Shown: piece after piece, positions 12,507 through 33,313 of the stretch
How the letters are laid out: each line of letters opens with the position of its first letter
Position numbering within the stretch: the first letter of the stretch is position 1
From: Candidatus Kerfeldbacteria bacterium
GTDB lineage: Bacteria > Patescibacteriota > Patescibacteriia > UBA9570
Direction of reading: 5' to 3'
Length of the DNA stretch: 64,000 nt
NCBI GenBank assembly: GCA_016182495.1
Contig: JACPGK010000032.1
Coordinates: 23,917 to 87,916 of the forward strand
Made by a program: the position numbers and the translations under genes
The notes under the pieces: generated by a model
Databases searched by the model: none
What the model saw: only the letters and a program-made list of their open reading frames with translations
Told to the model about the DNA's origin: nothing

Positions 12507-12513
12507 GTATACT

Positions 12514-13578: not shown

Positions 13579-14884
13579 CGGCGTTACTATTCTTGAAGCC
13601 ATTATTGCCGTAGCGGTGATGGCGTTAGTTTCTGGCAGTGTATTGGGGTTGTTATGGGGTGGCTTAAAATCAGCTGATGCTAATCAACGCCGCCAACTGG
13701 CGGTTGGTTTAGCCAATCAGCAACTCGAAATTATTAAAAATTTACCATACGATTCTGTTGGTACAACTGGTGGCGTACCATCTGGCAACTTGCCACAGAC
13801 ACAAACCAGTGTCATTAATAATACTACTTATACTATTACGACAGATGTGCATTATGTCGACGATAACTATGATCAAAAAACTCCTAATGATACTTTAAAT
13901 ACCGATTATAAACGAGTTGAAATTATTGTAACTTGGCCACACACTGATCAGGTGGTTGAAACATCAACGCTGATTGTTCCAAATGGTATTGAAAACAATG
14001 CTACTGGTGGCACCTTGTGGCTAGAAGTGTATGATCCTACTACTGATCCAGTCACACTCATTAATAAAGCCACGGTTACCATTTTGGCACCAACCGTAAC
14101 GCCCGCTGTATCGTTGAGCGTTAAAACTGATACTGATGGCCGCTATATTTTACCAGGCGCACCGGTTGGCACAGAAGCGTATCAAATTACGGTAACAAAA
14201 ACTGGTTATGGTTCAGCCCGTACCTATACAGCTGATATCGAGATGAATCCTAATCCCAATCCAGCCGATTTAAGTGTAGCGCAAGGTGAAGTGACGACAG
14301 AATATTTTCAAATTGCTCGCTTAGCCGACAGTATTAGTTTGCATACGCGAGATATCACGACTGATGCACCAGTGACTGTAGCCTTTGCTATACATAGTGA
14401 TAGTGTAATTGGCAGCGATGGTAGTGGTAATGAAATTTATGAATACAGTACTATCAATCTAACTGATGCGGCTGGCGGCTGGCAGTTGAATGATCCCGAA
14501 TCTGGTAACTATACTATTATTTTTGATGAAGCTGCCATTGGTTATGTGGTCGCTGGCACAACTCGCGATATTCCATTTGAAGTATTACCAAACGCTAACG
14601 AATCAGTCACGATCTATTTGCACAGCGCTATTCCATTTTCTGGTTTACTAACGGTGGTGGATGCGAATAACGCTCGCTTAGCCGACGCTACCGTACGTTT
14701 GTACACGGCTGATTTAACGTTCGATGTCACGCAAACAACTACCAGTTACGGTCAGACATTTTTTGATACGATTACGGCCGGCTCGTATTTAATTGATGTT
14801 ACCGCAACGGGGTATGCCGTGTATAATGGTTCAATCATCATTGGTGGTAATGATGAACAGACTATTTATATGGCTACGCTTTAA
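13556..14884 (+). CDS. Large pilin-like protein (about 440 aa) with a prepilin-type N-terminus and beta-rich repeats (carboxypeptidase-regulatory-like); possibly the major pilin
   Basis: Class III signal KSNG|VTILEAIIAVAVMALV with Glu at +5 and repeated VT(K/A)TGY segments; the start is set at Met8 of the track ORF. Confidence 0.55.
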   Translation: MPWWNKSNGVTILEAIIAVAVMALVSGSVLGLLWGGLKSADANQRRQLAVGLANQQLEIIKNLPYDSVGTTGGVPSGNLPQTQTSVINNTTYTITTDVHYVDDNYDQKTPNDTLNTDYKRVEIIVTWPHTDQVVETSTLIVPNGIENNATGGTLWLEVYDPTTDPVTLINKATVTILAPTVTPAVSLSVKTDTDGRYILPGAPVGTEAYQITVTKTGYGSARTYTADIEMNPNPNPADLSVAQGEVTTEYFQIARLADSISLHTRDITTDAPVTVAFAIHSDSVIGSDGSGNEIYEYSTINLTDAAGGWQLNDPESGNYTIIFDEAAIGYVVAGTTRDIPFEVLPNANESVTIYLHSAIPFSGLLTVVDANNARLADATVRLYTADLTFDVTQTTTSYGQTFFDTITAGSYLIDVTATGYAVYNGSIIIGGNDEQTIYMATL

Positions 14885-14886
14885 TT

Positions 14887-15510
14887 ATGATATCAATCAA
14901 CCGCCGTGGCTTTACCTTGATTGAAGCGGTGGTAGCTATGCTGATTACTGCCTTAATGATATTGGTTGGATCTGATTTATTAATTAATGGCAATCGTTTA
15001 GCCAACACCATCAGTGAACAAACTGATGCTATTACTACGGCCCGAGTAGCCCTTGATCCGGTAGGTAAAATTGTGCGCGAATTACGCAGTGGTGAAAATG
15101 GTGAGTACCCAATTATAGTAGCTGAAGCTGATTCATTCATTTTTTATTCTGATGTTGATAGCGACGCCCTCACTGAACAAGTTGAATACACCGTGGTTGG
15201 CACCGAATTGCGGCAACGCCTAATTGAACCAAGTGGTGATCCTGCCACTTATGATCCCGCCGCTACAGTTGAAACAGTTATTGCTAATGGCATTGTCAAC
15301 ACCAGTCTTACGGCTGAACCAATTTTCCGCTATTATACCAGTGACTATCCAACTGATACTACGAACAATCCTTTACCAACTCCGGCTGATGTTACTGCTA
15401 TTACGTTGGTAGCAATTCACCTTGACATCAATATTAATCCAAACCAGTTACCCGAAACGAGCGCCGTGGAGACATTTATTCAACTACGTAACCTTAAAAC
15501 CAACTTATGA
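14887..15510 (+). CDS. Type IV minor pilin / pseudopilin
   Basis: Canonical prepilin motif RRG|FTLIEAVVAMLI. Confidence 0.7.
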   Translation: MISINRRGFTLIEAVVAMLITALMILVGSDLLINGNRLANTISEQTDAITTARVALDPVGKIVRELRSGENGEYPIIVAEADSFIFYSDVDSDALTEQVEYTVVGTELRQRLIEPSGDPATYDPAATVETVIANGIVNTSLTAEPIFRYYTSDYPTDTTNNPLPTPADVTAITLVAIHLDININPNQLPETSAVETFIQLRNLKTNL

Positions 15511-16871
15511 AACGAGGCAGCAACCTTATTATCGCCATTATCTTTGGTGGTTTAATTGTGATGAGTAGCGGTGCTTTAATTAGTTTATTAATTGTGCAAC
15601 AACGTACCGTGCGTAACAACGTTGCTAAAGAACAAGCTCTGCAAGTTGCCGAGGCTGGTTTAAATCGCTACCGTTGGATATTAGCGCACGACCCTGAAGA
15701 TTTTGCGGGCCAAGATAAAGATTATGTAGACGCCGATGGTGATACCATCGGACACTATACCGTAACAGTGACGCCTCCTCAAATTGGCTCGACAGTGGTG
15801 ACTTTAACGGCTACTGGTTGGACCACAGCCTATCCAAATGTTCAACGAACCCTACGCGCCCGCTATGGTCAAGGATCATACGCCGAATATGCCGTGCTGA
15901 CCGATGCGAATATTTGGTTTGGTGAGGAAGAAGAAGTGCACGGAAAATTACATTCTAATGGCGGTATTCGAATGGATGGCACGGTAGATTCACAAACTAC
16001 CTCCATTCAAGAAACCTACATTTGTGGAGCTGAACATGGCTGTGATGATGAAGAAAAACCAGGAATTTGGGGTGATGGCGGTGATACTCAATACTGGGAT
16101 TTTCCAATTGCCGACGGGGTTGATTTTGATGCTATCACTCTAGATTTAGAAACGATGCATGAGGTGGCTGAAATTGATGGTATTTTATTAGGAGATTCGG
16201 GTGAATATGGCTATCATATTGTATTTAATAATACCGGCACGTTCACGGTGTATGTGGTGACGAAATTAAAAAATTCCGCCTATGGTTCGGATGGAAAAAG
16301 TTGGCGCTATTTTTCCTATGATATTAAACAGGAATCTGTGTTAGCTGGATATGAAAACGTAGCCTTACCAGCCAGTGGCATTATTTTTGTAGAAGATGAC
16401 ACTTGGGTATCGGGTCAAGTGGCTGGTCGAGTAACTGTTGCGGCCGCCAAGTTGCCAGAACCAGGCGATGAAACCATCGATATTATGATTCCAGATAACA
16501 TTACCTATTATCCTGATCGCACCAGTGGATCGGTACTAGGGTTAGTGGCGCAGCACGACGTGACTATTTCATTGGAAGTGCCAACTGATCTGACTATTGA
16601 TGCCGCTTTGCTGGCTCAAACTGGCCAAGTGTATCGAGTGTATTTTCATCCTAATTCAAATAAAACCCATGCGGTAAAAAATTATATTGAAACCTACGGC
16701 ACAGTGATTACGCATGGTATTTGGACCTGGAGTTGGGTGAATGCCAGTGGCAATGTTACCTCTGGCTTCCAACAAACCAACTCGATTCATGATCCAGCCT
16801 TAGTATATGCTCCGCCACCTTATTTTCCCACCAAAGATGAGTACACCTTTTTATCGTGGGAGGAGCTATGA
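15507..16871 (+). CDS. PilX-N-domain minor pilin-like protein (454 aa)
   Basis: N-terminal TM segment followed by ALQVAEAGL (the PilX_N signature A.QAAEAGL); large Gly/Asp-rich C-terminal region. Confidence 0.5.
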   Translation: MKRGSNLIIAIIFGGLIVMSSGALISLLIVQQRTVRNNVAKEQALQVAEAGLNRYRWILAHDPEDFAGQDKDYVDADGDTIGHYTVTVTPPQIGSTVVTLTATGWTTAYPNVQRTLRARYGQGSYAEYAVLTDANIWFGEEEEVHGKLHSNGGIRMDGTVDSQTTSIQETYICGAEHGCDDEEKPGIWGDGGDTQYWDFPIADGVDFDAITLDLETMHEVAEIDGILLGDSGEYGYHIVFNNTGTFTVYVVTKLKNSAYGSDGKSWRYFSYDIKQESVLAGYENVALPASGIIFVEDDTWVSGQVAGRVTVAAAKLPEPGDETIDIMIPDNITYYPDRTSGSVLGLVAQHDVTISLEVPTDLTIDAALLAQTGQVYRVYFHPNSNKTHAVKNYIETYGTVITHGIWTWSWVNASGNVTSGFQQTNSIHDPALVYAPPPYFPTKDEYTFLSWEEL

Positions 16872-17770
16872 TTTTCTTTAATGGCCAAACCAGAGTAGGC
16901 ATCGATTTAAGCGACTATAAAGTGCGCTTAATTGCCTTGACTGGGACTCGTAAACCAAGTATTCGAACATTTTGCGAAATAGACATACCAACCGGCACTA
17001 TCAATGAAGGGGCTATTCAAAAAACCGAAGTAGTGGTGCAGTTACTCAAAACCCTAGCTCGTCATTGTAAAGGATTACACTGGCACGATCGTACTGTACG
17101 AGTTGGTATACCAGAACAACAAAGTTTTATTACCACCGTATCGCTCGATAGTAACCACAAAGGTGATAACATTGATCAAGTGTTAGAAGTGATACCGTTT
17201 AAAAAAGAAGAACTCTACTATGATGTGCATGAACACCGTACCAGACAAGCTATGTCCATCGCAGCTGCTCGCAAAGCGTTTGTTGATCAGTATTTACAAA
17301 TATTTTCAGCGGCCAATTTCCATGTGGTAGCATTATATAGCGAAGCCGAGGCGATGGCCACTGCCTTGCTCGATAAAACAACCTCGACCACTGCCGGGAT
17401 TATTATTATTGATCTTGGTCGGGCTCGTACTACGGTAATTTTTTGCTGTAAAGGGTTAGTTTATTTTACAACCAGTTATCCTAGCGTGCTGACTGGAGAT
17501 ACTCTGAATCAAGGCAATTTCTTGGCGGTAACGCAACAAGCCATGGCTTTTTATGGTCAGCATTATGCTCAATATGCTACACTGCAACAACTCGTATTGT
17601 GTGGCAGCGGTGCCTATCAGCCAAATCTGGCCACTACTACGCAAACGGCCTGTGCTATTACTACTGTGCTCGGTAATCCATTACAACATATTCGCAGTAA
17701 CCACTTTACTAAAAAATTAAATCGTCCGCTAACATTTACTACGGCTATTGGCTTGGTATTGTATGCTTAA
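16868..17770 (+). CDS. pilM: Type IV pilus assembly protein PilM (actin-like ATPase fold)
   Basis: VGIDLSDYKVRLI, IIIDLGRARTT and LCGSGA motifs. The start is set at the ATG that overlaps the upstream stop (ATGA), with GGAGG just upstream. Confidence 0.7.
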   Translation: MIFFNGQTRVGIDLSDYKVRLIALTGTRKPSIRTFCEIDIPTGTINEGAIQKTEVVVQLLKTLARHCKGLHWHDRTVRVGIPEQQSFITTVSLDSNHKGDNIDQVLEVIPFKKEELYYDVHEHRTRQAMSIAAARKAFVDQYLQIFSAANFHVVALYSEAEAMATALLDKTTSTTAGIIIIDLGRARTTVIFCCKGLVYFTTSYPSVLTGDTLNQGNFLAVTQQAMAFYGQHYAQYATLQQLVLCGSGAYQPNLATTTQTACAITTVLGNPLQHIRSNHFTKKLNRPLTFTTAIGLVLYA

Positions 17771-18299
17771 CATTTTACCAGCTGAACAAAAAAATATTCT
17801 CGAACAACAACAGTGGTACTGGGTATTGCGCCAAAGTGCTGTTATTATTATTGCCACTATCCTGCTGGTAAATGGATTAATTATCGGCTGTCAGCAACTG
17901 TTACAACTATGGCAACGTAGCTTAGCCCAACAAACTGATACCATTATTTTAGATGATGACACGGAAAACCGTCTTAAAGCCAAACTCGATCGACTGAACA
18001 ATTTGATTCGAGGCACAAAAAATATTCAAACTACACAGGCTGAACCAGTCAGTATTATCACTGCTTTAATGCCAGCTATCCCCGATCAAGTAGTAATAAG
18101 TAAACTGACCATAGAAATGACTGATAGTAGTGTAACCATTATTGGTACCGTGCGCGACCGAGCGATGTTATCAGTTGTCCGCCAACAATTAGAACAAGCC
18201 GCCATTGATTCTGATCGTTTAACCGAACCTAATTTTGTGGTGACTAATTTAACTTCCGGGGACACTATTCCGTTCACCTTTAGTGCTAGTATACTATGA
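17763..18299 (+). CDS. pilN: PilN-like bitopic membrane protein
   Basis: MLNILPAEQK (the PilN INLLP motif), a TM segment, and a periplasmic coiled-coil domain. Confidence 0.6.
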   Translation: MLNILPAEQKNILEQQQWYWVLRQSAVIIIATILLVNGLIIGCQQLLQLWQRSLAQQTDTIILDDDTENRLKAKLDRLNNLIRGTKNIQTTQAEPVSIITALMPAIPDQVVISKLTIEMTDSSVTIIGTVRDRAMLSVVRQQLEQAAIDSDRLTEPNFVVTNLTSGDTIPFTFSASIL

Positions 18300-18838
18300 A
18301 ATTCACCAAACCATCCTATTTAATTCGAGGGATCATTTGGTTCGGCACAGCAGTGTTACTGCTACTGATTAGTATAATTTTTATTATCCGGCCAGGACAG
18401 AGTGCTATTGGCACTACCACTGCTGCTGTTCGTACTGTCATAGCCGAACAAACTACTCCACAATCAGCTACCTCAAATTTAGTACGAGCCGTAAAACGAG
18501 AACAGGATATTGATGCCATGACCATTCAGTTATTAAATAATTACATTGATCCAGCCGCCCCACTCGATTTTATCAACCTACTTGAACAGGCGGCGACTAG
18601 TCGATCGGTTGATGTATCATTTACTATTACTGATCCTATTCCTAGCCATATTCAAGCTGGAGAACCAGCTCCGGTTCGTTTAACGCTGGCAATAACTGGT
18701 GAATTAGTAGCTGTGCTTGAATTTATCAATGATGTTGTAACCCAGCCAATGCAATTAGATATTGCAGCCATCACTATCCAACCAGCTGAACATGGTGCGA
18801 TTCAAGCAAATGTAACAGTAACATCTCACTGGCAATGA
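18296..18838 (+). CDS. pilO: PilO-like bitopic membrane protein
   Basis: N-terminal TM segment plus a roughly 150-aa extracytoplasmic domain, translationally coupled (ATGA) to pilN. Confidence 0.45.
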   Translation: MKFTKPSYLIRGIIWFGTAVLLLLISIIFIIRPGQSAIGTTTAAVRTVIAEQTTPQSATSNLVRAVKREQDIDAMTIQLLNNYIDPAAPLDFINLLEQAATSRSVDVSFTITDPIPSHIQAGEPAPVRLTLAITGELVAVLEFINDVVTQPMQLDIAAITIQPAEHGAIQANVTVTSHWQ

Positions 18839-19152
18839 ACAATTATCAATCCCTGGTTAAAAAATATCTGCCATTCAGCTGCAGTGTACTAGCACTTGGC
18901 TATGTTGGTTACATGATTTGGTTTATTGTGCAAACCAGTGTCTTGCCACTGTTTTCTGATCAAACGTTATTACTGAACAGCGAACAGTATAGTATCCCCG
19001 ATGCAGCCGTACAACGACAAATTGATTTTGCTGACCAGCGCCGTACTAACCGGCCCAATACTGCTGATGTGATTGATCGCTTTGATCATGGTAATGAAGG
19101 AGTTCTTACCAGCACGAATGATGCCTCCGTTGAACAATTACCTACTCCTTAG
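18835..19152 (+). CDS. Small membrane protein at the end of the pil operon (possible PilP analogue)
   Basis: One TM helix and an ATGA overlap with the pilO-like gene. Confidence 0.3.
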
Positions 19153-21715
19153 CTTGATGACTGTTAAAAGTTAACTTACCTTGACGATAATCAACCGTGA
19201 TAGTAGTGCCAGCCGGTAACTTACCTTCAATTAACCGCCAAGCTAATTCATCGGTGATGGTATTTTGAATAATGCGTTGTAATGGACGCGCCCCAAACAC
19301 TGGATCAAAACCAATGCTGACCAAATGGTCAGTGGCCGCTGCCGTACACTGTACCGTTACTCCTTTATCAGCCAATCGATCAATCACTCGCTGCAGCTGC
19401 AGCTGAACAATGGCCTGCATATCAGTGGCCGTGAGTTGCTGAAAAATAATACTATCATCAATCCGATTTAAAAACTCTGGACGAAATGCCTGACGCAGCA
19501 CTGTTTGTACAGCTTGACGCTGTTGATCGGGTTGGTTAGCTAACTGCATAATTTCTGGACTGGCTAAATTTGAAGTCATAATAATGATGACATTCTTAAA
19601 ATCAACTGTTCGACCTTTGGCATCGGTTAATCGTCCATCATCTAATACCTGCAGTAATATGTTCAATACTGCTGGATGGGCCTTTTCAATCTCATCAAAT
19701 AAAATTACTGTATAGGGGTGACGCCGAACAGCCTCGGTGAGTTGGCCGCCTTCTTCGTACCCAACGTAACCAGGCGGTGATCCAATTAATCGGGCTACAC
19801 TATGTTTTTCCATATACTCCGACATATCAATCCGTGTGAGCATTTTTTCACTGGTAAACAATACCTGGGCAAGGGCTTTGGCCAATTCTGTTTTACCTAC
19901 GCCAGTTGGCCCTAAAAAAATAAATGATCCAAGTGGCCGATCTTCGGCCTGAATCCCAGCCCGACTGCGCCGAACCGCTCGGGCTACTGCGGTGATGGCT
20001 TGGGTTTGTCCAATCACCCGTTCACCCAACTGCTTCTCTAAATGTGTCAACTGCTCGGTTTCAGTGGTAAGCATTTTAGTCACCGGAATACCAGTCCAAC
20101 GTGATACCACTTGGGCAATATCTTCTTCCGTCACTTCATCTTTCAAAATTTTCTGATCGCGTTGAATATCGGCTAACTGTTGCTGGGCTTGGTGGATAGT
20201 TTTTTCCAGAGCAGGAATTTTACCATAAGTAATTTCGGCCACGGCCTGTAAATCGCCTAACCGTTCTGCCTGAATGGCCTGCTCCTTCAGTTGATCAATG
20301 TGCTTACTGGCGGTTGAAATTTGATCAATGTATTTTTTTTCATTCTGCCAGTGTAATTGTATTTCTTTTAACTGTTCCCCCAGTTCAGCCAAATCGTGTT
20401 CTAGGGCAGTTAAACGCTGCTGCGATTGGGTGTCGTGTTCTTTAGTCAAAGCCGCCCGTTCAATTTCTAACTGACGAACTCGTCGTTCTAAACGATCCAG
20501 CGCTGTTGGTTTACTATCACGCTCAAGCTGTAATACCGAACAGGCTTCATCCATCAAATCAATGGCTTTATCTGGTAAAAAACGATCAGTAATATAGCGA
20601 GTCGATAACAACACCGCTGCCACTACAGCGTTATCGCGAATTTTAACCCCATGATGAACTTCATATTTTTCTTTAATACCGCGTACAATAGAAATGGCAT
20701 CGGCTGTAGTGGGCTCTTCTACCATGACTGGTTGAAATCGTCGTTCCAGCGCCGCATCTTTTTCAATATAACGACGGTATTCTTTAATAGTGCTAGCGCC
20801 AATGGCATGTAATTGGCCACGCGCTAACGTTGGCTTCAATAAATTGCCAGCATCCATAGCACCTTCAGCACTGCCAGCTCCAATAATCGTATGCAATTCA
20901 TCAATAAATAAAATGATTTGGCCATTGGACTGTTCAATTTCTTTCAACAAGGCTTTTAAACGATCTTCAAACTCGCCACGATATTTGGTACCAGCCACTA
21001 GGGCTCCTAAATCTAGGGCTAGTAACTGTTTGCGCTTTAAGCTTTCTGGCACATCACCATCAACGATCTTTTTAGCTAGACCTTCAACGATGGCGGTTTT
21101 ACCAGTACCGGGTTCGCCTACTAATACCGGATTATTTTTACTACGCCGTGATAATATTTGCATGACGCGACGAATTTCATCATCCCGACCAATCACCGGA
21201 TCAATTTTTCCAGTTCGAGCCAAAGCTGTAAAATCGTGAGTATATTTAGCCAACACCTCATACTTACTTTCCGGTTCTGCATCAGTGACGCGTTGTGATC
21301 CACGAATGGTTTTAAGCACATCTAATACTTGTTGTTGAGTGAATGGCAGCAGTTTGGTAATAGCAGTATTATCTAGTAAAGCTAATAATAGATGCTCGGT
21401 GCTAACGTAATCATCCTTCAATTGAGCCGCTGACTGTTCAGCCCGGGTTAAAACCTGTCGTAAATCGTTACCAATATACGGTTCACCGCCAGTAACCTTA
21501 GGTAGAGCGTCCAGTTCAGCCTGCAGGCTACGTTGCACGGCTGCGGGTTGATGATTTAACTTCAGTACCAACTTTGGTACCAAACCTTCTGATTGTTGTA
21601 CTAAAGCCAAAGCCAAGTGTGGTGGCTTAATTTCTTGATGTGAACTGTGCTCGGCCAGCTGTATAGTATGCTGGATAGCTTCAGCCGCTTTGGTAGTAAA
21701 ACGATTTAAATTCAT
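19142..21715 (-). CDS. clpB: Disaggregase chaperone ClpB
   Basis: Two AAA+ modules (GEPGTGKTA / GPTGVGKTE) separated by a long coiled-coil M-domain, plus a Clp_N repeat N-terminus. The preferred start is ATG 21715 (MNLNRF). Confidence 0.9.
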
Positions 21716-21726
21716 TAGCACTCTCT

Positions 21727-21763: not shown

Positions 21764-22282
21764 CTAGCGCTGATACAAAAAAATAGTAATAGCCTGTTGT
21801 CCTGGCTTATCAACTATAGTAGGCTGCCAACCGACAATTGGAAAAACATAAGAAATAACTCGACTGCCTGGTTTCAGTTCACGTTCTAATTTTAAGCGCA
21901 AGGTATGACGTAATTTTTCGGGCATACCAAACACATACACCACATCAGCGGTAGCTAAATTAATTCGGAACAGGTTGCGCCAATAAAACTGCACATTGGT
22001 TCGGCCTGAACGCCATTGTCGAAACTTACATACCAGCCATAACGGCCAGGCTAACTCCACGCCAATAGCTTGGCCAGAACAATGTTCAGCAACATACAAT
22101 ACCGTTTTACCGTTACCACAGCCTAAATCATAAAACGTTTCTGTTGGTTGTAGCTGGGCTAAGCGCAGTATCCGCGGTAAATCCTTTTGCCACATTGGTA
22201 CCCATGGAGCCAGCGACCAGCTAGGTAGAGCCATCATTGCCACCAACCCAAACAGTAGAATGAATAGTAGCCACCACATCAC
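21764..22282 (-). CDS. Class I SAM-dependent methyltransferase (small, membrane-anchored)
   Basis: Motif I YDLGCGNGK and an N-terminal hydrophobic segment. Confidence 0.55.
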   Translation of the reverse strand: MMWWLLFILLFGLVAMMALPSWSLAPWVPMWQKDLPRILRLAQLQPTETFYDLGCGNGKTVLYVAEHCSGQAIGVELAWPLWLVCKFRQWRSGRTNVQFYWRNLFRINLATADVVYVFGMPEKLRHTLRLKLERELKPGSRVISYVFPIVGWQPTIVDKPGQQAITIFLYQR

Positions 22283-25047
22283 TAAATTGGTTCAGCTTTA
22301 ATCACAGTTACTTCACCGCCGGGTTGTAGTTCCACGCTATCGCGACGTGATAATTGTTTATCCAGTAATAATTTGGCAATGCCATCTTGCACTGTATCTT
22401 GAATTAAACGACGCAACGGACGAGCTCCAAATTGACGATTATAGCCACGCTGAACCAAATCAATCACCGCAACTGGTGTCCATTGTAATGTAATACCCTT
22501 GGCTTGCAGCTGATGAGCTAACTGCTGCAACATTAATTCACCAACTTGCACCAGTTCTTCGGGCGTGAATGGAGTAAATACTGCAATATGATCGAACCGA
22601 TTTAAAAATTCTGGCCGAAAATAATGCCGTAATAAATCTCCGGACAATAATTCTTGCTCAATCGCCTGGGTGGTGGCGCCTTGATCGTAACGCTGTTGAA
22701 TAGTATCGGTACCAGCATTGGATGTGGCAATAATCATGGTATTGCTAAAATCAATCGTGCGGCCAGTACCATCAGTCAGTCGGCCATCTTCCATCACTTG
22801 TAAAAAAACATTGAGTACATCGCTATGGGCTTTCTCGAGCTCATCGAGCAACACAATGCCGAATGGCGTGCGCCGAACAGCTTCGGTGAGATGTCCTTGC
22901 TCACCGGCAGCACCGATCAGTTTAGTTAAACTGTCAGGGGTATCATATTCCGACATGTCAAATCGCAACATGGCTTGCTCGTTGCCAAAATAAACAGCCG
23001 CAATAGCTTTAGCGGTTTCGGTTTTACCTACTCCGGTGGGACCTAAAAATAGTAAGGAGGCGATTGGCCGAGTTGTATCGCGAATATCCTCTCTAGCCCG
23101 CCGTAACGCTCGCGCAATGGCTTGAATAGCTTCAGTTTGACCAATAACGCGTTCAGCTAAAATCTGTTCGAGATGCAACAACTTTTGAGCTTCAGTTTGA
23201 GAAATAGCACTTAACTGCACATTGGTTTTTTCGGACATAATCCGTTCCACCACCGCTTTAGAGACTAAAGCATGCTCACCCAATTGTTCACGGGCATAAA
23301 TAGCCGCCTCTTCCATAATGTCGAGTGCTTTAGCCGGTAAATGACGATCTTTCATAAATCGTTCAGTTAATTCGACAGCCGCTACTAAAGCATCGTGCGT
23401 AAAATATACTTTTTGCTTACTTTCTACATAGAGTGCTCGACTAGCTAACACGCGTACCGCATCGGCTGGTGCCAGTTCTGCTACTGTGACTACTTGAAAT
23501 CTGCGTAAAAATGTTTCGTTATTTTCAATATATTTCTGAAACTCTGGCGTGGTAGTAGTGCCTACTACCTTAATATACCCCTGGGAAATATAGTTCATTA
23601 AAATTTTCCCAATATCAATATTAGAACCAGTTGAGCCGGCCCCCAATAACGTATGGATATCTTCAATGCCCCAAATCACGTTGCCGGCCATAATAATATC
23701 TCGAATGATTAATTCCATCCGTTGTTCTATGCCACCAACGCCGCCGGCGCCGGCAATAATAGCACCGGGTTCCGACACTACAAAACGTTTATCCTGCAAC
23801 GATACTGGCACATCTTCGGCTGTCATTAACTGGGCAATGCCCTGCAATAGGCTGGTTTTGCCGCTGCCAGATTCACCGACAAATAACACACTGCTATGAC
23901 CTTCTTGCAACACCCGAAAGGCTTCTTGCACAGCTTGGTTCCGGCCAATCACTGGTAAAAAGTGACCGGCTCTGGCTTGCAGGGTAAAATCTTGCGATAC
24001 AGCGTCGAGTTGGTTGGTGGGTCGAGCGGTCATGGCTCGATTCATAATCGTTTTAGGTTTACTGCGACCTAAATGATACCGTCGCTGTTGTTGTTGCAGC
24101 ATATCATCCACTATATTGCTCCATTCCACCAGGCTACGCACTTTATCAAGTGTCACTTCGCGTTCGTATAAAGCGTCATTAATTAATTGATCCGCTAAAA
24201 TACAACCAACTAACGCTTCTACCGGTTTTACTTGGGGGCGATGATGGTCACGCGCTTCAGCATAGGCTAACAGTAAAGCCCGTCGCAGCTCGGCCCCTAA
24301 ATCAGGTGTTGTGAATGGATGCGCACTTTTCTCTAATCGATTAGTCAAACGCGCCAAGGTACGCTGCAACTCGCGATTATCAATTTCTAAACGATACAAC
24401 AATGCTCGAATATCACTACGCTCGTACAACGTCAGCAAGAGATGGAGGGGCTTCACTTCAGTGTGATGCCACCGTTCAGCCAACAAATACGCCTGTTCTA
24501 AAGCAGCCGTGGTGGTATCGTGCAGGTAGAGTGATGCCTCAATTTTTTTCTGATCAGGAACGTTACGCCAATATTTCCAATCCGTAGCGCTGCCGGTAAT
24601 AGTAAAATGCGCTAATTTATTTTCGGCAGTAATATAGCGATGTTGGTTGCTACGGACCAATCGGTAATATAAAAATAAATCAGCTACTACCGAGGCCCAA
24701 AAGCCTAAAATTAATGGCGAGCGCTGACTAAATAAATGCACTAACGGTTGATGCGTCACTTGCAATTCAATGATCTCTAACAGTAATGCTATTAAGCCGG
24801 CGCTGGCGGCAACGATGAACACAGTAGTCACTATCCAGTTGATGGTACGTTCGAGTTTTTTTTCAAGTACGCTGCTTACCGATAATTGCTCGCCCCAATA
24901 CACTAAATCATTTTCAATAAAACCTAACACTGATTGTTCAGCCCGACACCAGCTGCAGATGACGTGTTTACCGGCCGGAGTAATGGTATAACCAAACCCA
25001 TGACACTGTGGACAATCAATCCAAGCAGCTGATAGCGCTACAGCCAT
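22282..25047 (-). CDS. Clp/Hsp100-family double-AAA+ ATPase with an N-terminal CxxC...CxxC zinc ribbon and two predicted TM helices
   Basis: CPQC...CSWC; TM segments INWIVTTVFIVAASAGLIALLLEII and LILGFWASVVADLFLYYRL; two Clp_N-like repeats; Walker A GESGSGKTS and GPTGVGKTE; Walker B-2 IVLLDELEKAH; no long M-domain. Confidence 0.8.
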   Translation of the reverse strand: MAVALSAAWIDCPQCHGFGYTITPAGKHVICSWCRAEQSVLGFIENDLVYWGEQLSVSSVLEKKLERTINWIVTTVFIVAASAGLIALLLEIIELQVTHQPLVHLFSQRSPLILGFWASVVADLFLYYRLVRSNQHRYITAENKLAHFTITGSATDWKYWRNVPDQKKIEASLYLHDTTTAALEQAYLLAERWHHTEVKPLHLLLTLYERSDIRALLYRLEIDNRELQRTLARLTNRLEKSAHPFTTPDLGAELRRALLLAYAEARDHHRPQVKPVEALVGCILADQLINDALYEREVTLDKVRSLVEWSNIVDDMLQQQQRRYHLGRSKPKTIMNRAMTARPTNQLDAVSQDFTLQARAGHFLPVIGRNQAVQEAFRVLQEGHSSVLFVGESGSGKTSLLQGIAQLMTAEDVPVSLQDKRFVVSEPGAIIAGAGGVGGIEQRMELIIRDIIMAGNVIWGIEDIHTLLGAGSTGSNIDIGKILMNYISQGYIKVVGTTTTPEFQKYIENNETFLRRFQVVTVAELAPADAVRVLASRALYVESKQKVYFTHDALVAAVELTERFMKDRHLPAKALDIMEEAAIYAREQLGEHALVSKAVVERIMSEKTNVQLSAISQTEAQKLLHLEQILAERVIGQTEAIQAIARALRRAREDIRDTTRPIASLLFLGPTGVGKTETAKAIAAVYFGNEQAMLRFDMSEYDTPDSLTKLIGAAGEQGHLTEAVRRTPFGIVLLDELEKAHSDVLNVFLQVMEDGRLTDGTGRTIDFSNTMIIATSNAGTDTIQQRYDQGATTQAIEQELLSGDLLRHYFRPEFLNRFDHIAVFTPFTPEELVQVGELMLQQLAHQLQAKGITLQWTPVAVIDLVQRGYNRQFGARPLRRLIQDTVQDGIAKLLLDKQLSRRDSVELQPGGEVTVIKAEPI

Positions 25048-25427
25048 AGGTAAATATTAGTATCAATGATGCCAAATTGGTATACAATATTATACACTAC
25101 AAATACCGGAGCCAGTAACCACACCGCTAGTAACGCTAACAACAGTATAATATAGGCGGTGGCTTGCAAAGTGAGTAAACTAAAATGTACCAAACGTACC
25201 GGAAAACTAATCAACCGACTCCAAATATCGGTTAAGCCATACATGGGCACAAACAAGTATTGTGCCAATATTTTTAAATTGAGTGACCGAACAATATCTT
25301 GAGCCTGCCAACTTAATACTCGAATTATTTTTATGGTACCAGCGCCATACCACCACACTGGAAAATACATCACCATTAAAACGATATCAACCACCAAAAA
25401 TCGTACCACCTGTGTAAACGTTGACAT
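25038..25427 (-). CDS. Hypothetical small membrane protein
   Basis: Hydrophobic ORF overlapping the start of the Clp-like gene by 10 nt. Confidence 0.4.
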   Translation of the reverse strand: MSTFTQVVRFLVVDIVLMVMYFPVWWYGAGTIKIIRVLSWQAQDIVRSLNLKILAQYLFVPMYGLTDIWSRLISFPVRLVHFSLLTLQATAYIILLLALLAVWLLAPVFVVYNIVYQFGIIDTNIYLWL

Positions 25428-25454: not shown

Positions 25455-25823
25455 TTATTCAAAATGCCAATACGGCCCTAGGGCTAACAATACTACTAGG
25501 CTAGTGATAAAAAAAATACTAAACCACCAATTCCAGCCGTAACTTAAAAAAGCCATCAAGCCAACTAGAGCAATAACATCGGCCATTGCCCAGGCAATAT
25601 ACTCCTGCTGTAAAATACGTTTAAACACAATCGCCAATAGCGCGCTCATTAAGCCCACAGCGATTAAAGCATACAGCATGGCAGTGGATTTTGTAGTGAT
25701 GTACGGCGTAGTGTACTGTAACCAATACGCTAGCGCAAAATAAACCAAGGTACTAGTCAACAGACTGGCCCATACAGTATACACGGCCGGCATATTACGA
25801 TGATTGATAATTGAATCAACCAT
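25455..25823 (-). CDS. Hypothetical small membrane protein
   Basis: 4-TM hydrophobic ORF in the same operon. Confidence 0.4.
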   Translation of the reverse strand: MVDSIINHRNMPAVYTVWASLLTSTLVYFALAYWLQYTTPYITTKSTAMLYALIAVGLMSALLAIVFKRILQQEYIAWAMADVIALVGLMAFLSYGWNWWFSIFFITSLVVLLALGPYWHFE

Positions 25824-25829
25824 GTTTCT

Positions 25830-26156
25830 TTAACACGTATAAGTTGAAGCTACTACATACAATAAACTAGCGGCGGCCAGGCTCATGCTAATTGAAATCA
25901 TAACCAACCACGATACGTGATGGCGGTGGTGTTCAAATAAATTATAGGCTTCGAGTAGTAACCCAATTAATAACACTGCTACTCCTCCGTAGCCAAACTT
26001 AGCTGCTCCTAATAATAAGGTATTAGCGCATACTTCTGTAAATACGGGAAACAACATCATACCAAACACTACGCTGACCATGACAGTTCCAATGAAAACT
26101 ACTAACACAGGTAAAGCTGGGTGTAAACCGGTTTTGGAAGGTGGGTGATGAACCAT
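25830..26156 (-). CDS. Hypothetical small membrane protein
   Basis: 3-TM hydrophobic ORF with a His-rich loop EHHRHH. Confidence 0.4.
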   Translation of the reverse strand: MVHHPPSKTGLHPALPVLVVFIGTVMVSVVFGMMLFPVFTEVCANTLLLGAAKFGYGGVAVLLIGLLLEAYNLFEHHRHHVSWLVMISISMSLAAASLLYVVASTYTC

Positions 26157-29822: not shown

Positions 29823-30440
29823 TTATACTAAAAGAATATTGGCTTGTACATGTGCCGGGCCATGCTGTATCAACCAGCGCTGCATACTAGCCACAATGCC
29901 TTGCCATTGACTATTGGTTAAGCGCAACTTTTGCACGCTCTGATAAGGTGTACTGGTTAACCACTGGATAATTTTAATCACCTCGGACTGATTCGTTTGA
30001 GCGGCTAAATCATAGCCTAATACCCGAATCACTTTGCAAGCAAAACTACACAACACGGTGCGATGAGCTCCGGTTTGATCAATCCAGGCTAAAATTTCAT
30101 ACAGCAATTGGTATAATACCGTATCGGCGGCCCCTTCGGGAGTAAGATCACCTACTAATTGGGTACACCAATGAGCGGCCTGCCACGACTGTTGCTGGGC
30201 TGTAATATGTTTAAACCGATGCCGGATAACGGCGCCACCTATTTTTGGACGTTGCCGAGCAGCGATTAAATATAAATCAATTTCGGCAAACGGTTCTAGG
30301 CTGCCAGCTAGCTTTGATTGCAGTTTGCGTACGCCATGTCCACGGACAATTTGCTTACCGGCTGTTTCAGAATACACTGTGTATACTCGATCGGCTTCTC
30401 GCCAGGCGCGATAGTACAGCACAATCGCTCGAGTATTCAT
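29823..30440 (-). CDS. recO: DNA repair protein RecO
   Basis: N-terminal OB-fold pattern RAIVLYYRAWREADRVYTVYSETAGK...LEPF; typical length. Confidence 0.6.
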   Translation of the reverse strand: MNTRAIVLYYRAWREADRVYTVYSETAGKQIVRGHGVRKLQSKLAGSLEPFAEIDLYLIAARQRPKIGGAVIRHRFKHITAQQQSWQAAHWCTQLVGDLTPEGAADTVLYQLLYEILAWIDQTGAHRTVLCSFACKVIRVLGYDLAAQTNQSEVIKIIQWLTSTPYQSVQKLRLTNSQWQGIVASMQRWLIQHGPAHVQANILLV

Positions 30441-33313
30441 CGCTGCAATACCACCGATATTTTTGCCTGATTGACGGTTAATTCTACAGCGGCTGCATCA
30501 AGTTGAGTAGCTGGTTCCAACCGATTGGCCAGTACGCTGCGTTGTAATAATTCAGCCTGCTGACTGAATATACTCTGCAGCACTGGATCGCTAGTCATGT
30601 ACTGTAGCACCACCTGATCGTGAATACTTAAACCTTGTTGTTTACGCAAAGCATTAATTTGACGAACTAATTCTCGCAGCATGCCTTGCTGGGCTAACTC
30701 GGGAGTAATAACGGTATCTAATTGATAATCTGCCCCGGGCTGAATCTGCTGCACATTCACTTCTGCCGCCACTACGCTGATCAGCTCATTTGACCATTGC
30801 TCACTGTGCGGAACGGTAGCACTGGTTAATGGTTGACGCACTTTCAGGCCAGCGTGTTCACGCAGGGCCAATATTTTTTCTACGGCCTGACGCGCTAACG
30901 CCATCTGTTCCAGCACCGTGGCATCATAGTACGATTGATCAAAGGCTGGCCAATCTGCCAAATGCACTGAATCACCAGTACCACCCAACTGTTGATAAAT
31001 ATGGTCACTAATAAAAGGAGTAAATGGAGCTAATAATTTAGTGACGGTTAATACCACATAGCGCAAAGTAGCTAAAGTCGATTGAGCTTGATCGTCGGAT
31101 AATTTAATTCGATCACGACTACGCCGGATATACCAGGTTGATAATTCTTGAATAAAACTTTCCAATTGATGAGTGGCGCTGGCTAAATCGTACTGTTCCA
31201 TTGCCGTGGTGACCTGTTGTACTGTTTGCTGGCACAAGCTAACAATCCAACGATCCATAATGTGCTCCGTGCTTGGTTGGGCTGATGGCGTTTGATCACG
31301 GGCAAACAGTTGATAGAACGTAAAGATATTCCACAATGTTAACAGCACTTTTTTCATCACCAAATCAACTCCTTTTTCGGAAAAACGTAAATCTTCTGCC
31401 TGCACTACCGGTGAACTCATCAAATAAAACCGTAAAGCATCGGCTCCGTATTTATTTAATACCAATTCGGGTTCAGGATAATTTTTTAAACGTTTACTCA
31501 TTTTTTTACCATCTTCAGCCAATACTAACCCATTCACAATCACGTTACGAAAAGCCGGTTTATCAAATAACGCCGTGCTTAACACCATCAAGGTATAAAA
31601 CCAACCACGAGTTTGATCTTGCCCTTCGGCAATAAATTGGGCCGGAAAGTTAGCCTCAAACTCGGCTTTATGTTCAAAAGGATAGTGTTGTTGCCCATAC
31701 GGCATGGCACCAGATTCGAACCAACAATCCACTACCTGGGGGATGCGCTTAAACTGTTTGTTATCCTTTGTAATCACAATTGGATCAACATATTGTTTAT
31801 GCAGATCAGTTACGGTGACGCCGGATAATTCAGCCAATTCAGCCATACTACTCACACAAATCACCTCACCGTCAGCTGCCTTCCAAATAGGCAATGGCGC
31901 GCCCCAATAACGATCACGTGAAATGGCCCAATCTTTGGCTCCGGCTAGCCACTTACCAAACCGGCCAGCTTTAATATGATCGGGCAGCCAGTGAATTAGG
32001 TCGTTATTTTTAAGCAGACGTTCTTTTAGATTTGTCACCCGAACAAACCAAGAAGTTGTGGCATAGTTCAACAAGGGAGTATCACAGCGCCAACAGTGCG
32101 GATAGTTATGGCGATACGTTTCAGTGCGCCACACTAGACCAGCTGATTGGACTAATTCCAATAACTTAGCTTGCCCCCGTTTCACTGGTAAGCCAGCCAA
32201 CGGTTTAGTTAACTGGTTAAAGGTACCGTCCATATCAACATCCATCACCATTGGCAAATGATTGGTTTGGGCTGCTTGCATATCAATATCCCCATAGGAA
32301 CCGTTAATAGTGACAATGCCCGTACCCTCGGTGACTTCAACATAATCGGCGGCAAACACATGGTACACGTTGGGATTATTTTTTACTTCCGGTACATCAC
32401 GGTAATAGTCAACAATCGGTTGATAGGCTAACCCAACCAGCTGATCACCTTTGAATTCATCAATCACTTGGTAATGAGTAACGTTCTGCATCACTGTGGC
32501 CAGGCGATCTTTCACGCAAATCACATAGTCGTCACCCACTTTAACTTTCACATACGTATGCTGTACACCAACCGATAATCCCATGGTAGTTGGCGTGCTC
32601 CAGGGTGTAGTGGTCCAAGCCAGTAAGTAGGTGTTTGGTTGATTGAGCACTTTAAATTTCCAGGTGACGGCGATATCATCAACCTCGCGATAGCCTAAAG
32701 TGACTTCAAAATTCGATAACGGCGTGACACAACGTGGGCACACATGCATGGCTTTTTTACCTTCGTAAATTAAGCCTTGTTTATATAATTCACTAAATAC
32801 CCACCAGACCGATTCCATAAAAGTGGGATCCATAGTGCGGTAGTCGTTATCCATATCCACCCACCGCCCTAATCGCTCAATGGTACTGCGCCATTCTTTG
32901 GTGTAGCGTAACACACTATCGCGGCAGGCATCGTTAAATTTAGCCACCCCAATGGCTTCAATATCCTGTTTGGTTTTTAGGCCCAATTCTTGTTCAATCA
33001 AATTTTCCACTGGCAAGCCGTGACAATCCCAACCCCAACGCCGTTCTACTCGATAGCCACGCATAGTGGCATAACGTGGTACGACATCTTTGATAGTGGA
33101 AGCAACAATATGACCATAATGGGGTAAGCCGGTAGCAAAGGGCGGGCCATCATAAAATACAAAGGAACGATCAACTGGTCGCTGGCTGACGGATCGTTCA
33201 AAAATGTTTAGTTGTTTCCAACGCTCACTGACTTGTTGCTCAAGTTGGGCAAAATTTGGTTGCGGCATAATAAAATTTGCCCGAACTATAGCATTGTTTG
33301 GCGTGAATGGCAA
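30437..33313 (-). CDS. ileS: Isoleucine--tRNA ligase
   Basis: PHYGHIV (HIGH), GWDCHGLPVE and KMSKRLKN (KMSKS), with the domain order of a class I editing synthetase. Confidence 0.85.
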   Translation of the reverse strand: MPFTPNNAIVRANFIMPQPNFAQLEQQVSERWKQLNIFERSVSQRPVDRSFVFYDGPPFATGLPHYGHIVASTIKDVVPRYATMRGYRVERRWGWDCHGLPVENLIEQELGLKTKQDIEAIGVAKFNDACRDSVLRYTKEWRSTIERLGRWVDMDNDYRTMDPTFMESVWWVFSELYKQGLIYEGKKAMHVCPRCVTPLSNFEVTLGYREVDDIAVTWKFKVLNQPNTYLLAWTTTPWSTPTTMGLSVGVQHTYVKVKVGDDYVICVKDRLATVMQNVTHYQVIDEFKGDQLVGLAYQPIVDYYRDVPEVKNNPNVYHVFAADYVEVTEGTGIVTINGSYGDIDMQAAQTNHLPMVMDVDMDGTFNQLTKPLAGLPVKRGQAKLLELVQSAGLVWRTETYRHNYPHCWRCDTPLLNYATTSWFVRVTNLKERLLKNNDLIHWLPDHIKAGRFGKWLAGAKDWAISRDRYWGAPLPIWKAADGEVICVSSMAELAELSGVTVTDLHKQYVDPIVITKDNKQFKRIPQVVDCWFESGAMPYGQQHYPFEHKAEFEANFPAQFIAEGQDQTRGWFYTLMVLSTALFDKPAFRNVIVNGLVLAEDGKKMSKRLKNYPEPELVLNKYGADALRFYLMSSPVVQAEDLRFSEKGVDLVMKKVLLTLWNIFTFYQLFARDQTPSAQPSTEHIMDRWIVSLCQQTVQQVTTAMEQYDLASATHQLESFIQELSTWYIRRSRDRIKLSDDQAQSTLATLRYVVLTVTKLLAPFTPFISDHIYQQLGGTGDSVHLADWPAFDQSYYDATVLEQMALARQAVEKILALREHAGLKVRQPLTSATVPHSEQWSNELISVVAAEVNVQQIQPGADYQLDTVITPELAQQGMLRELVRQINALRKQQGLSIHDQVVLQYMTSDPVLQSIFSQQAELLQRSVLANRLEPATQLDAAAVELTVNQAKISVVLQR

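Follow-up and report, generated by a model that had tools for sequence, protein, structure and literature searches.

The window analysed here, a stretch of 64,000 nucleotides from contig JACPGK010000032.1 of an uncultured, groundwater-type Candidatus Kerfeldbacteria bacterium of the Patescibacteria (metagenome-assembled genome GCA_016182495.1), encodes on its minus strand a Clp/Hsp100-like ATPase of 921 residues (22282..25047 (-), ATG start; identified from its open reading frame and by Pfam and NCBIfam), to which we give the working name mClp, for membrane-anchored Clp/Hsp100-like ATPase. Hsp100/Clp proteins are textbook AAA+ motors, which grip a polypeptide with the tyrosines of their pore loops. 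The mClp family has kept the ATPase of the second AAA+ module (D2), has lost the aromatic paddles, the M-domain and the ClpP loop, and differs further by an added zinc knuckle, a predicted membrane hairpin and an obligate partner, which is a small membrane protein. Judged by these motifs, mClp probably represents a membrane-bound, ATP-driven type of machine that has not been described, and not a classical unfoldase. The reading that we prefer, at a probability of roughly 45 %, is a two-component membrane AAA+ machine in which ATP cycles of D2 would cause rigid-body changes that remodel or gate an assembly with a small membrane protein encoded directly upstream, with the N-domain and the zinc knuckle doing the binding.

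Gene model and identity of mClp

From its N-terminus, mClp consists of a CxxC-x15-CxxC zinc module, two predicted membrane helices, a Clp N-domain, a connector, the first AAA+ module (D1), D2 and a D2-small domain, and the sequence is 100 % identical to GenBank protein P0001. Over 10 nt, the beginning of the gene overlaps the end of the reading frame before it (ATGGCTGTAG), and its start codon is the sole in-frame Met among the first 200 codons. Residues 1-355 are 25-49 % identical in 16 homologues; since this region is conserved at the protein level it is coding, and an artefact of upstream extension is excluded. The concern that the true start might lie downstream of the hydrophobic region can thus be set aside, and a mis-called start was rejected, as the N-terminus is conserved and no other Met is available. 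A broader artefact explanation, by which the gene has a mis-called start, is a pseudogene or is a decaying clpB/clpC duplicate without a function of its own, could appeal to NCBIfam scores far under the trusted cutoffs of all named Clp families, but all 921 codons lie in one uninterrupted frame, conservation of the N-terminal module extends to invariant Cys, Trp and Arg residues, the motifs that replace the canonical ones are themselves conserved, and dozens of independent assemblies carry the gene with conserved synteny. We regard this explanation as effectively refuted.

The initial annotation had described a double-AAA+ Clp/Hsp100 paralogue, and this description is borne out by Pfam matches to AAA_2 (180 bits), ClpB_D2-small (PF10431, 73 bits) and AAA_lid_9 (40 bits), next to a single Clp_N repeat at residues 186-234, and by an end-to-end alignment with ClpA (TIGR02639) over residues 179-905, which is the best single-stretch full-length NCBIfam alignment. 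No named Clp family can claim the protein, as mClp scores 540 bits with the ClpB model TIGR03346 (trusted cutoff 1232), 476 bits with the ClpA model TIGR02639 (cutoff 993) and 452 bits with the ClpV/TssH model TIGR03345 (cutoff 885). Its top sequence match in the PDB is ClpC of S. aureus, and the ClpE structure 29hb was also matched. An identity as ClpV was rejected on the score and on the genomic context, since the nine annotated loci of the mClp family contain no type VI secretion system genes; an identity as the partner of a ClpP protease was rejected for want of a docking loop; and there is no Peptidase_M41 or FtsH_ext match in mClp, whose ATPase is of the Clp type and has two rings, unlike that of FtsH. 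Because the defining features of ClpA, ClpB, ClpC, ClpE and ClpV were each looked for and are lacking, mClp is not assignable to any of them. No published description of a membrane-anchored Clp/Hsp100 protein or of the Patescibacteria mClp family was found in the literature searched, in which the family is apparently undescribed. The counts given below refer, where 42 sequences are named, to a core alignment of 42 full-length family members with the ClpB of the window and canonical ClpB, ClpC and ClpV sequences.

The putative zinc module and the predicted membrane hairpin

The N-terminus of mClp (MAVALSAAWIDCPQCHGFGYTITPAGKHVICSWC) follows the pattern CxxC-x15-CxxC, with 15 residues between C12-P-Q-C15 and C31-S-W-C34. 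This zinc module (residues 12-34, CPQCHGFG...CSWC; 24946..25014 (-)) forms a knuckle within a beta-rich domain of residues 7-50, as judged by the invariant cysteines and by strands at 7-11, 20-22, 28-30, 40-44 and 47-50 in a model made with AlphaFold2 (AF2). The motif had been noted in the initial annotation, together with a call for orthologues that share it; such orthologues were found, since 39 of 42 homologues of full length have the Cys pairs, and alignment A1 shows no variation at C12, C15, C31 and C34. The first half of the module, CPQCHGFG, fits the DnaJ-type pattern CxxCxGxG and the second, CSWCRAEQ, is CxxC only; the homologue P0051 carries two full CxxCxGxG motifs. Sub-threshold Pfam matches were obtained with Anti-TRAP in 10 of 17 members (best E 0.0016) and with DnaJ_CXXCXGXG in 9 of 17 (best E 0.017). 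We describe the module as a DnaJ/Anti-TRAP-like knuckle with predicted zinc binding, which expresses a likeness and claims no family membership. Every retrieved sequence that carries the N-terminal module of mClp is itself an mClp, which is indirect evidence on other architectures.

The AF2 model of residues 1-355 (17-sequence alignment; predicted local distance difference test score, pLDDT, 85.9; predicted template-modelling score, pTM, 0.80) consists of the zinc domain at 7-50, helices at 57-97 and 111-133 with a short external segment between them, an all-helical part at 166-298, a long helix at 300-328 and then a poorly defined linker. The two predicted transmembrane (TM) helices were judged by this model and by Kyte-Doolittle hydropathy. 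Both are helical in the model, in keeping with what had been predicted for them, and they differ in strength. TM helix 1 (residues 68-97; 24757..24846 (-)) is unambiguous and reaches a 19-residue hydropathy maximum of 2.56 within the modelled helix 57-97, and values of about 1.95 or higher are found in all 42 members. TM helix 2 (residues 111-131, PLILGFWASVVADLFLYYRLV; 24655..24717 (-)), which coincides with the modelled helix 111-133, is weaker, at 1.5 in mClp and below 1.3 in several members; its ends are marked by the invariant F116-W117 on one side and by Y-Y-R129 on the other, that is by aromatic belts with an Arg at the presumed cytoplasmic end. Lys and Arg residues flank the presumed cytoplasmic ends of the hairpin (K63, K64 and R67; R129, R132 and R137). 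Because of this charge distribution, and because the ATPase must be cytoplasmic, the simplest model is a hairpin of N-in/C-in topology that exposes a loop of only about 13 residues on the outside, and in which the zinc module and everything after TM helix 2 would lie in the cytoplasm.

The Clp N-domain and the connector

Residues ~166-298 (24154..24552 (-)) form a Clp N-domain, that is a double Clp_N repeat, for which the Pfam match to Clp_N at 186-234 and a structural search with Foldseek are the evidence. They superpose on whole N-domains of ClpB, ClpA, ClpC and HSP101 with target-normalised TM-scores of 0.8-0.89 over about 138 columns, and the range widens to 0.7-0.89 when the matches to Hsp104 and ClpV are included. 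The two Clp_N-like repeats that the initial annotation had seen are therefore correct, as it is the whole N-domain that superposes. The top match is HSP101 of Plasmodium (4irf, E 1e-6), by a small margin over ClpB, and an N-domain of the plant SMAX1/D53 family (9kkx) is among the matches.

The N-domain is followed by the N-D1 connector (24016..24150 (-)), which is peculiar to this family, is defined by near-invariant columns and by the AF2 model and consists of the helix 300-328 and the stretch K330-P-K-x-x-M-N-R-A-M-T-A-R-P-T344. The motif is specific enough to serve as a pattern for scanning genomes; in distant members it is degenerate, with KPKGPINQAWTS and KPGNNMNRAYTA in place of KPKxxMNRAMTARPT.

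The two ATPase rings

The catalytic apparatus is divided unevenly between the two rings. D2 (residues 596-825; 22573..23262 (-); delimited by the AAA_2 match and the alignment) carries Walker A GPTGVGKT at 669-676, Walker B VLLDELEK at 732-739, sensor-1 ATSN at 774-777 and FLNRFD at 814-819, and it is followed by the D2-small domain (residues 828-906; 22330..22566 (-); the PF10431 match) with sensor-2 GARPLRR at 874-880. These motifs hold throughout the family: GPTGVGKT is found in 39 of 42 members, the other three having conservative variants, hLLDE[LFI]EK and TSN in all 42, the Arg finger NRFD in 41 and the sensor-2 motif GARP[LM][RK]R again in all 42. D1 (residues 346-592; 23272..24012 (-); delimited by alignment and column counts) carries Walker A GESGSGKT at 391-398, the pore loop AGAGGVGGIE at 432-441, VIWGIEDIH at 457-465 in the position of Walker B and LRRFQ at 514-518. 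Its Walker A is present and its Arg-finger pair RRFQ is found in 41 of 42 members, but Walker B reads [IV]ED[IL]H in 41 of 42, with ED in the place of DE, where ClpB reads I-D-E-L-H. The Walker B Glu is the catalytic base in AAA+ enzymes.

Both pore loops depart from the canonical form. Translocation depends on pore-loop tyrosines, in ClpB and Hsp104 above all on that of D2, and we know of no characterised Hsp100 that does without aromatic-hydrophobic paddles in processive translocation. In D1, the KYRG of ClpB is replaced family-wide by AG-A-G-G-[IV]-G-G-[LIV]-E; an aromatic residue occurs in one of 42 members, the column aligned with the ClpB Tyr holds G, N, D or A, and an aliphatic I or V is present in the loop of 27 of 42. 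In D2, the loop of mClp is shortened (LIGAAGEQGHLTEAV, residues 710-724) and without GYVG, and it reads G-A-A-G-E-Q-G-H where it aligns with the pore loop of ClpB; across the family it is 5-6 residues (6 alignment columns) shorter, with polar residues at its centre that vary between members (EQ, QQ, QP, KP, ST and others). In a count over 51 family sequences and 66 canonical matches, the D2 motif G[YFW][VIT]G was found in none of the 51 family sequences, as against 62 of the 66 canonical ones, in which the aromatic motif of the D1 pore loop is present in 54.

Two further elements of known Clp proteins are missing. The initial annotation had seen no ClpB-type M-domain and had asked for the ClpP-docking loop to be checked against ClpA and ClpC, and the alignment answers both points. 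The columns of the M-domain are empty in mClp and in the family, and the distance from D1-small to D2 is 23-30 residues in metagenome relatives, with which mClp aligns likewise, compared to 149 in the neighbouring ClpB. The docking tripeptide IGF/IGL/VGF after the D2 sensor-1 is absent from the family alignment; where the ClpC-type protein P0052 has KVIGFAP in an insert of eight residues, the family is gapped. Together, these features predict a D2-only motor with a slow or non-hydrolysing D1, without a ClpP partnership, without a DnaK-coupled disaggregase function and without canonical threading. The replacement motifs are conserved in turn (IEDIH in 41 of 42 members, G-[IV]-G-G and KPKxxMNRAMTARPT), which points to purifying selection on a new function, and the current label "ATP-dependent Clp protease ATP-binding subunit" is, going by the motifs, misleading for these genes.

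The same data bear on the idea that mClp does no mechanical work and is a membrane-tethered scaffold for regulation or sequestration, in which the N-domain, the zinc knuckle or both bind a soluble client and ATP only controls oligomerisation or release. The progressive degeneration of D1 across the family and the loss of the pore loops would suit such a protein, for which the plant SMAX1/D53 family, Clp-like proteins that serve as scaffolds and do not unfold, offers a precedent; its N-domain is also among the structural matches (9kkx). Yet about 90 sequences that span under 35 % identity retain every catalytic residue of D2, the Walker B Glu, sensor-1, the Arg finger and sensor-2 included, which argues for real ATP turnover coupled to function, and an obligate membrane partner would be left unexplained. 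We consider a scaffold improbable.

Extent and divergence of the family

The architecture had been taken as unique to this protein, which it is not. About 50 full-length homologues are known, none from outside the Patescibacteria and none with any annotation beyond "Clp protease ATP-binding subunit"; a scan of 185,579 species-representative genomes for the connector signature MN[RK][AS]MTARP gave 24 that carry it, all of them Patescibacteria or metagenome-assembled genomes of the Kerfeldbacteria type; and beyond the full-length set there is a wider, zinc-less clade of mClp relatives. Nine of the module-bearing contigs (L014, L016-L019, L021, L025, L028, L029) are third-party assembly (TPA) records titled "uncultured Gammaproteobacteria bacterium", a label that looks wrong; the gene content of such records matches that of the other module-bearing loci.

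In about 40 distant ATPases from metagenomes, encoded next to the small partner protein, D1 has decayed further: Walker B is mostly IDNIE, no Arg fingers remain, and GKK or GKD frequently stands in Walker A. Their D2 is intact, with a pore loop of 8-10 residues as compared to 14, typically G-D-x-D-G-[TA]-[LK]-G-Y. To judge by these motifs, the D1 of the deeper relatives is plainly a mere pseudo-ATPase. What appears constant in the family at the sequence level is therefore the small partner, the TM hairpin, the N-domain, the connector motif, a degenerate D1 and a putatively active D2 without a canonical pore loop. A zinc knuckle and a semi-intact D1 belong to subclades.

An obligate membrane partner

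Directly upstream of mClp lies a gene for a helical-hairpin membrane protein of 129 residues (25038..25427 (-)), the stop of which overlaps the mClp start by the 10 nt mentioned above. Neither Pfam nor NCBIfam has a family for this protein, which is characterised by the motifs YFPxWWYxxG and LFxPMYGxxDxxxRLISFxxR. Its AF2 model (pLDDT 86.7) is a long helical hairpin of residues 3-48 and 68-117 with an invariant polar motif in the connecting region, and the structural neighbours of the model are non-specific. An exhaustive HMMER search found homologues in 181 cluster representatives, nearly all of them stand-alone proteins of 100-140 residues. One further match, P0247 (1073 residues, nine partial matches to the partner), was discarded as a spurious low-complexity tandem repeat.

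The association of the two genes was followed from either side. Among the loci retrieved by way of the ATPase, the partner profile matches directly upstream and on the same strand in 31 of 31, a 32nd locus having no upstream DNA, and all annotated homologous loci have an open reading frame of 100-131 residues in this position (one copy was missing from the annotation and was recovered by translation). In eight of nine loci with called genes, the two genes overlap by up to 16 nt or are separated by no more than 4 nt. An independent metagenome scan from the side of the small protein gave 433 matching stretches; among the loci with at least 600 nt of downstream sequence, about 66 of 68 continue with a Clp-like reading frame on the same strand, of which 57 were scored automatically and nine had escaped because their stop-to-stop frames overlap by more than 150 nt. 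None of these paired Clp-like frames in the metagenome loci contains GYVG, all have a strongly hydrophobic N-terminal segment, and about half have the zinc ribbon. The small protein and mClp are thus co-encoded throughout one lineage of Patescibacteria, usually with overlapping stop and start codons. A lead only is offered by P0207 (414 residues), in which a partner sequence (163-257) is followed by an mClp-like N-terminal TM hairpin (…FW…YRR) and which may be a natural fusion, in which case it would speak for a physical interaction, or an artefact of a frameshift or of contig assembly.

An obligate 1:1 pairing with a long helical-hairpin membrane protein invites the thought of an ATP-driven conduit or gate, in which six TM hairpins and a ring of small subunits would make a membrane pore over a smooth, widened AAA+ channel, and a cargo, be it an envelope precursor or a protein that is fully or partly folded, could be moved across or into the membrane without paddles, in the manner of Bcs1 or of HSP101 on EXP2. 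A wider channel would be expected from the shorter pore loops, the N-domain finds its best structural match, if narrowly over ClpB, in HSP101 of the PTEX translocon, and genes of envelope biogenesis are frequent neighbours (WecA-like, Bac_transf, GT4, MurJ-like and NAGPA). However, the external loop of mClp has only some 13 residues, little of the small protein is predicted to lie outside the cytoplasm, a pore-forming oligomer is without support in the present data, HSP101 itself retains its pore tyrosines, and the preference of Foldseek for HSP101 over ClpB is marginal. We see such a conduit as a long shot.

A machine that may not thread

In the two-component machine that we favour, mClp and the small protein would form a complex in the membrane, with mClp as a ring, presumably a hexamer, under the membrane and the entry face of D1 turned towards it. 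D1 would serve as a nucleotide-binding ring for assembly and D2 as the only motor. No polypeptide would be threaded; the ATP cycles of D2 would instead be converted into rigid-body movements which remodel, gate, assemble or disassemble a membrane complex that contains the small protein, while the N-domain and the zinc knuckle may be the sites at which clients or the partner are bound. With neither ring retaining paddles, and with so short, polar and variable a loop in D2, we judge processive threading to be unlikely. The logic of such a mechanism would be closest to that of Torsin with its transmembrane cofactors, and unlike that of ClpB, ClpAP or FtsH.

The initial annotation had suggested a dedicated machine for extraction or quality control of membrane proteins. 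Of this proposal the membrane tether and a link to proteostasis are plausible, whereas threading is doubtful, the pore aromatics being missing in both rings. In its full form this main alternative is a non-canonical threading extractase or unfoldase, a hexamer under the membrane with D1 turned towards it, akin to FtsH and Msp1, which would use aliphatic or other pore residues to pull damaged or mislocalised membrane proteins into the cytoplasm, with the small partner as an adaptor or delivery subunit and the clients perhaps passed on to ClpB/DnaK or to proteases. The hairpin in front of the N-domain gives an FtsH-like geometry, the N-domain is a full one of the substrate-binding type, the D2 motor is fully conserved, I or V occupies the D1 loop in 27 of 42 members and the D2 loops of the wider clade read G[TA]LGY, and clpB is a recurrent neighbour in two independent arrangements. 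Membrane-anchored AAA+ extractases do exist, Msp1 and FtsH being the precedents (PMC12793716, PMC7018516, PMC7949044). Against an extractase, the canonical Ar-Phi-Gly pore loop is gone in both rings family-wide, and the D2 loop positions of this clade are polar and variable, which indicates no selection for a gripping residue. The tyrosine of D2 that is lost here is the one required for translocation in ClpB and Hsp104. There is also neither a protease domain nor a ClpP loop, so an extracted chain would have no obvious fate. On balance we hold extraction by threading to be somewhat unlikely.

Several points weigh against the two-component, non-threading machine as well. That it does not thread is an argument from missing motifs, and weak gripping by aliphatic residues (I or V in the D1 loop, G-T-L-G-Y in D2 of the wider clade) is possible; a complete N-domain, a conserved D2 motor and a membrane-facing D1 fit a membrane-protein extractase. 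The likeness to Torsin is imperfect, since mClp has its Arg finger in cis and two rings. We infer the physical interaction between mClp and its partner from gene linkage only. TM helix 2, only moderately hydrophobic, is possibly re-entrant or interfacial, and hints from neighbouring genes in compact, syntenic genomes may reflect ancestry and not function.

We also speculate about a new class of membrane-embedded Hsp100 machine, which we deem unlikely as a whole, in which a hexameric or similar ring of TM hairpins and small subunits would sit on a paddle-less double ring and D2 hydrolysis would gate or drive the passage, insertion or assembly of a cargo. Candidate cargoes are enzymes of envelope biogenesis, such as the WecA-like transferase, or other membrane complexes of the ultra-small Patescibacteria.

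Comparison with known systems

Among the soluble relatives, ClpB/Hsp104 shares with mClp a class-I N-domain, D1, D2 and D2-small, and the two D2 modules are about 44-46 % identical, with the same Walker A and B, sensor-1, Arg finger and sensor-2; neither has a ClpP-docking loop. The differences from ClpB lie in the missing M-domain, without whose coiled coil there is no site for DnaK coupling, in the absence of both pore tyrosines, in the ED of the D1 Walker B and in the added zinc module and TM hairpin. ClpA resembles mClp in having no long M-domain, and ClpE and ClpX also begin with a Cys4 zinc module, but mClp differs from ClpA, ClpC and ClpE in lacking the ClpP loop, the short M-domain/UVR of the ClpC type and the pore tyrosines, and in being anchored to the membrane.

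Of the membrane-associated systems, FtsH, which has two TM helices per subunit, and Msp1/ATAD1 likewise have an N-terminal TM anchor by which the ring is held with its entry face to the membrane; they are, in contrast, single rings of the classical AAA clade with aromatic pore loops essential for extraction, to which FtsH adds an M41 protease, and none of these features is found in mClp. In PTEX (HSP101-EXP2) and Bcs1, an Hsp100 or AAA ring is coupled to a membrane pore or anchor for the translocation of proteins. Unlike mClp, HSP101 is a soluble protein with an M-domain and pore tyrosines, and the pore on which it docks is made by other proteins; Bcs1 is a single, heptameric ring. The plant SMAX1/D53 proteins share a double Clp-like architecture with degenerate mechanochemical motifs and the N-domain fold of 9kkx, but are eukaryotic, soluble, nuclear co-repressors, while mClp is membrane anchored with an intact D2 active site.

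Torsin is phylogenetically nearest to Clp/Hsp100, is without aromatic pore loops, is associated with the membrane and depends on the transmembrane cofactors LAP1/LULL1 (PMC5425593). It thus resembles mClp in its Clp-related AAA+ fold, its lack of pore aromatics, its N-terminal hydrophobic membrane association and its membrane partner, and differs from it as a single ring, lumenal and eukaryotic, that receives its Arg finger from the cofactor, whereas mClp has two rings, an Arg finger of its own and a Clp N-domain. The cofactor of Torsin, moreover, has an AAA+-like domain and the partner of mClp is a small helical hairpin. The relation of mClp to Torsin is accordingly one of analogy, not of membership.

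Gene neighbourhood

Two genes downstream of mClp lies clpB (19142-21721 (-), GTG start listed). It had been called a bona fide clpB, rightly so, since it scores 1263 bits with TIGR03346, above the cutoff of 1232. In at least 11 of 115 loci a clpB occurs in the flank that was fetched, either in tandem downstream, as in the window, or, in another clade, mostly divergently and just upstream of the partner gene. Loci of that clade in which a divergent clpB shares its intergenic region with the partner-mClp pair are L034 (2150-4789 (-)), L051, L055, L082, L084, L085 and L098. Adjacency in two arrangements lends modest support to a link with proteostasis, though the association is far from universal. 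A sigma-70-like site with 10 of 12 matching positions (21756-21727) just upstream of clpB suggests that it is transcribed apart from the mClp operon, and a second site of 10 of 12 (26966-26937) lies just upstream of the NAGPA-like gene described below. Both are weak hints only, as scans of the window for intrinsic terminators and promoters were not above chance overall (28 vs 19 +/- 5 and 13 vs 9 +/- 3, respectively).

The start of the gene immediately downstream of mClp abuts the mClp stop. It encodes a TM-anchored, class-I methyltransferase-like protein of 172 residues (21764..22282 (-)) with an N-terminal TM helix, weak Pfam matches to DOT1 and Methyltransf and a best NCBIfam match, at 59.7 bits and below the cutoff, to an archaeal protein-lysine N-methyltransferase. 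The gene is subclade-specific and is found next to mClp in 16 related loci. By analogy with VCP-KMT and p97, it is conceivable that this protein methylates the invariant lysines K330 and K332 of the connector.

Upstream of the partner gene follow two small polytopic membrane reading frames of 122 residues (25455-25823 (-)) and 108 residues (25830-26156 (-)), both recognised by hydropathy and without a Pfam or NCBIfam family. Homologues in the same position are confined to the window's subclade, where 8-12 related loci have them, and they may be extra subunits or merely syntenic. The same-strand run is headed by a NAGPA-like phosphodiester glycosidase (PF09992; 26188-26928 (-)) with a lipoprotein-like N-terminus (…LGTSC), which is conserved upstream in about 11 related loci. 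The run of the subclade is therefore NAGPA-like lipoprotein, 108-residue TM protein, in some cases the 122-residue TM protein, partner, mClp and methyltransferase-like protein.

In 22 of 65 loci the gene directly downstream of mClp encodes a WecA/TagO-like polyprenyl-phosphate sugar transferase of the polyprenyl-phosphate GlcNAc-1-P transferase family (Glycos_transf_4, below the NCBIfam cutoffs), examples being L034:8403-10019, which also has a QueH domain, L005:10704-11789 and L094:6554-7321. Other neighbours from envelope biogenesis are Bac_transf, GT4, MurJ-like and NAGPA genes, and tgt is nearby in 31 loci. The clpB and WecA/TagO-like neighbours suggest a role in membrane proteostasis or in the biogenesis of the envelope.

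Elsewhere in the window, a type IV pilus cluster (10779-19152 (+)) runs convergently towards clpB and includes a PilB-type T2SSE ATPase with an MshEN domain (10779-12506), PilM (16856-17770) and small PilN/PilO-like TM proteins (17748-19152); the same cluster follows clpB in L003. A giant reading frame of 2846 residues (33314-41854 (-)) has no Pfam match at E <= 1e-5 and resembles the huge lineage-specific surface proteins of the Candidate Phyla Radiation, and the adjoining frame of 958 residues (30437-33313) is probably ileS, by synteny with related loci.

Significance

If mClp is active, then either an Hsp100 ring works without aromatic pore loops, and bacteria would then pose the same unsolved problem as Torsin does, or translocation uses a quite different pore chemistry, and either outcome would be informative on the mechanism of AAA+ proteins. 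Both mClp and its partner are small enough for heterologous expression and cryo-electron microscopy. Should the membrane-embedded machine be true, it would represent a bacterial, non-threading Hsp100 mechanism to which Torsin and Bcs1 offer the only, and distant, analogies. For the organisms themselves, the family would be a membrane machine specific to one lineage of the Candidate Phyla Radiation, bacteria whose cell biology is poorly understood.

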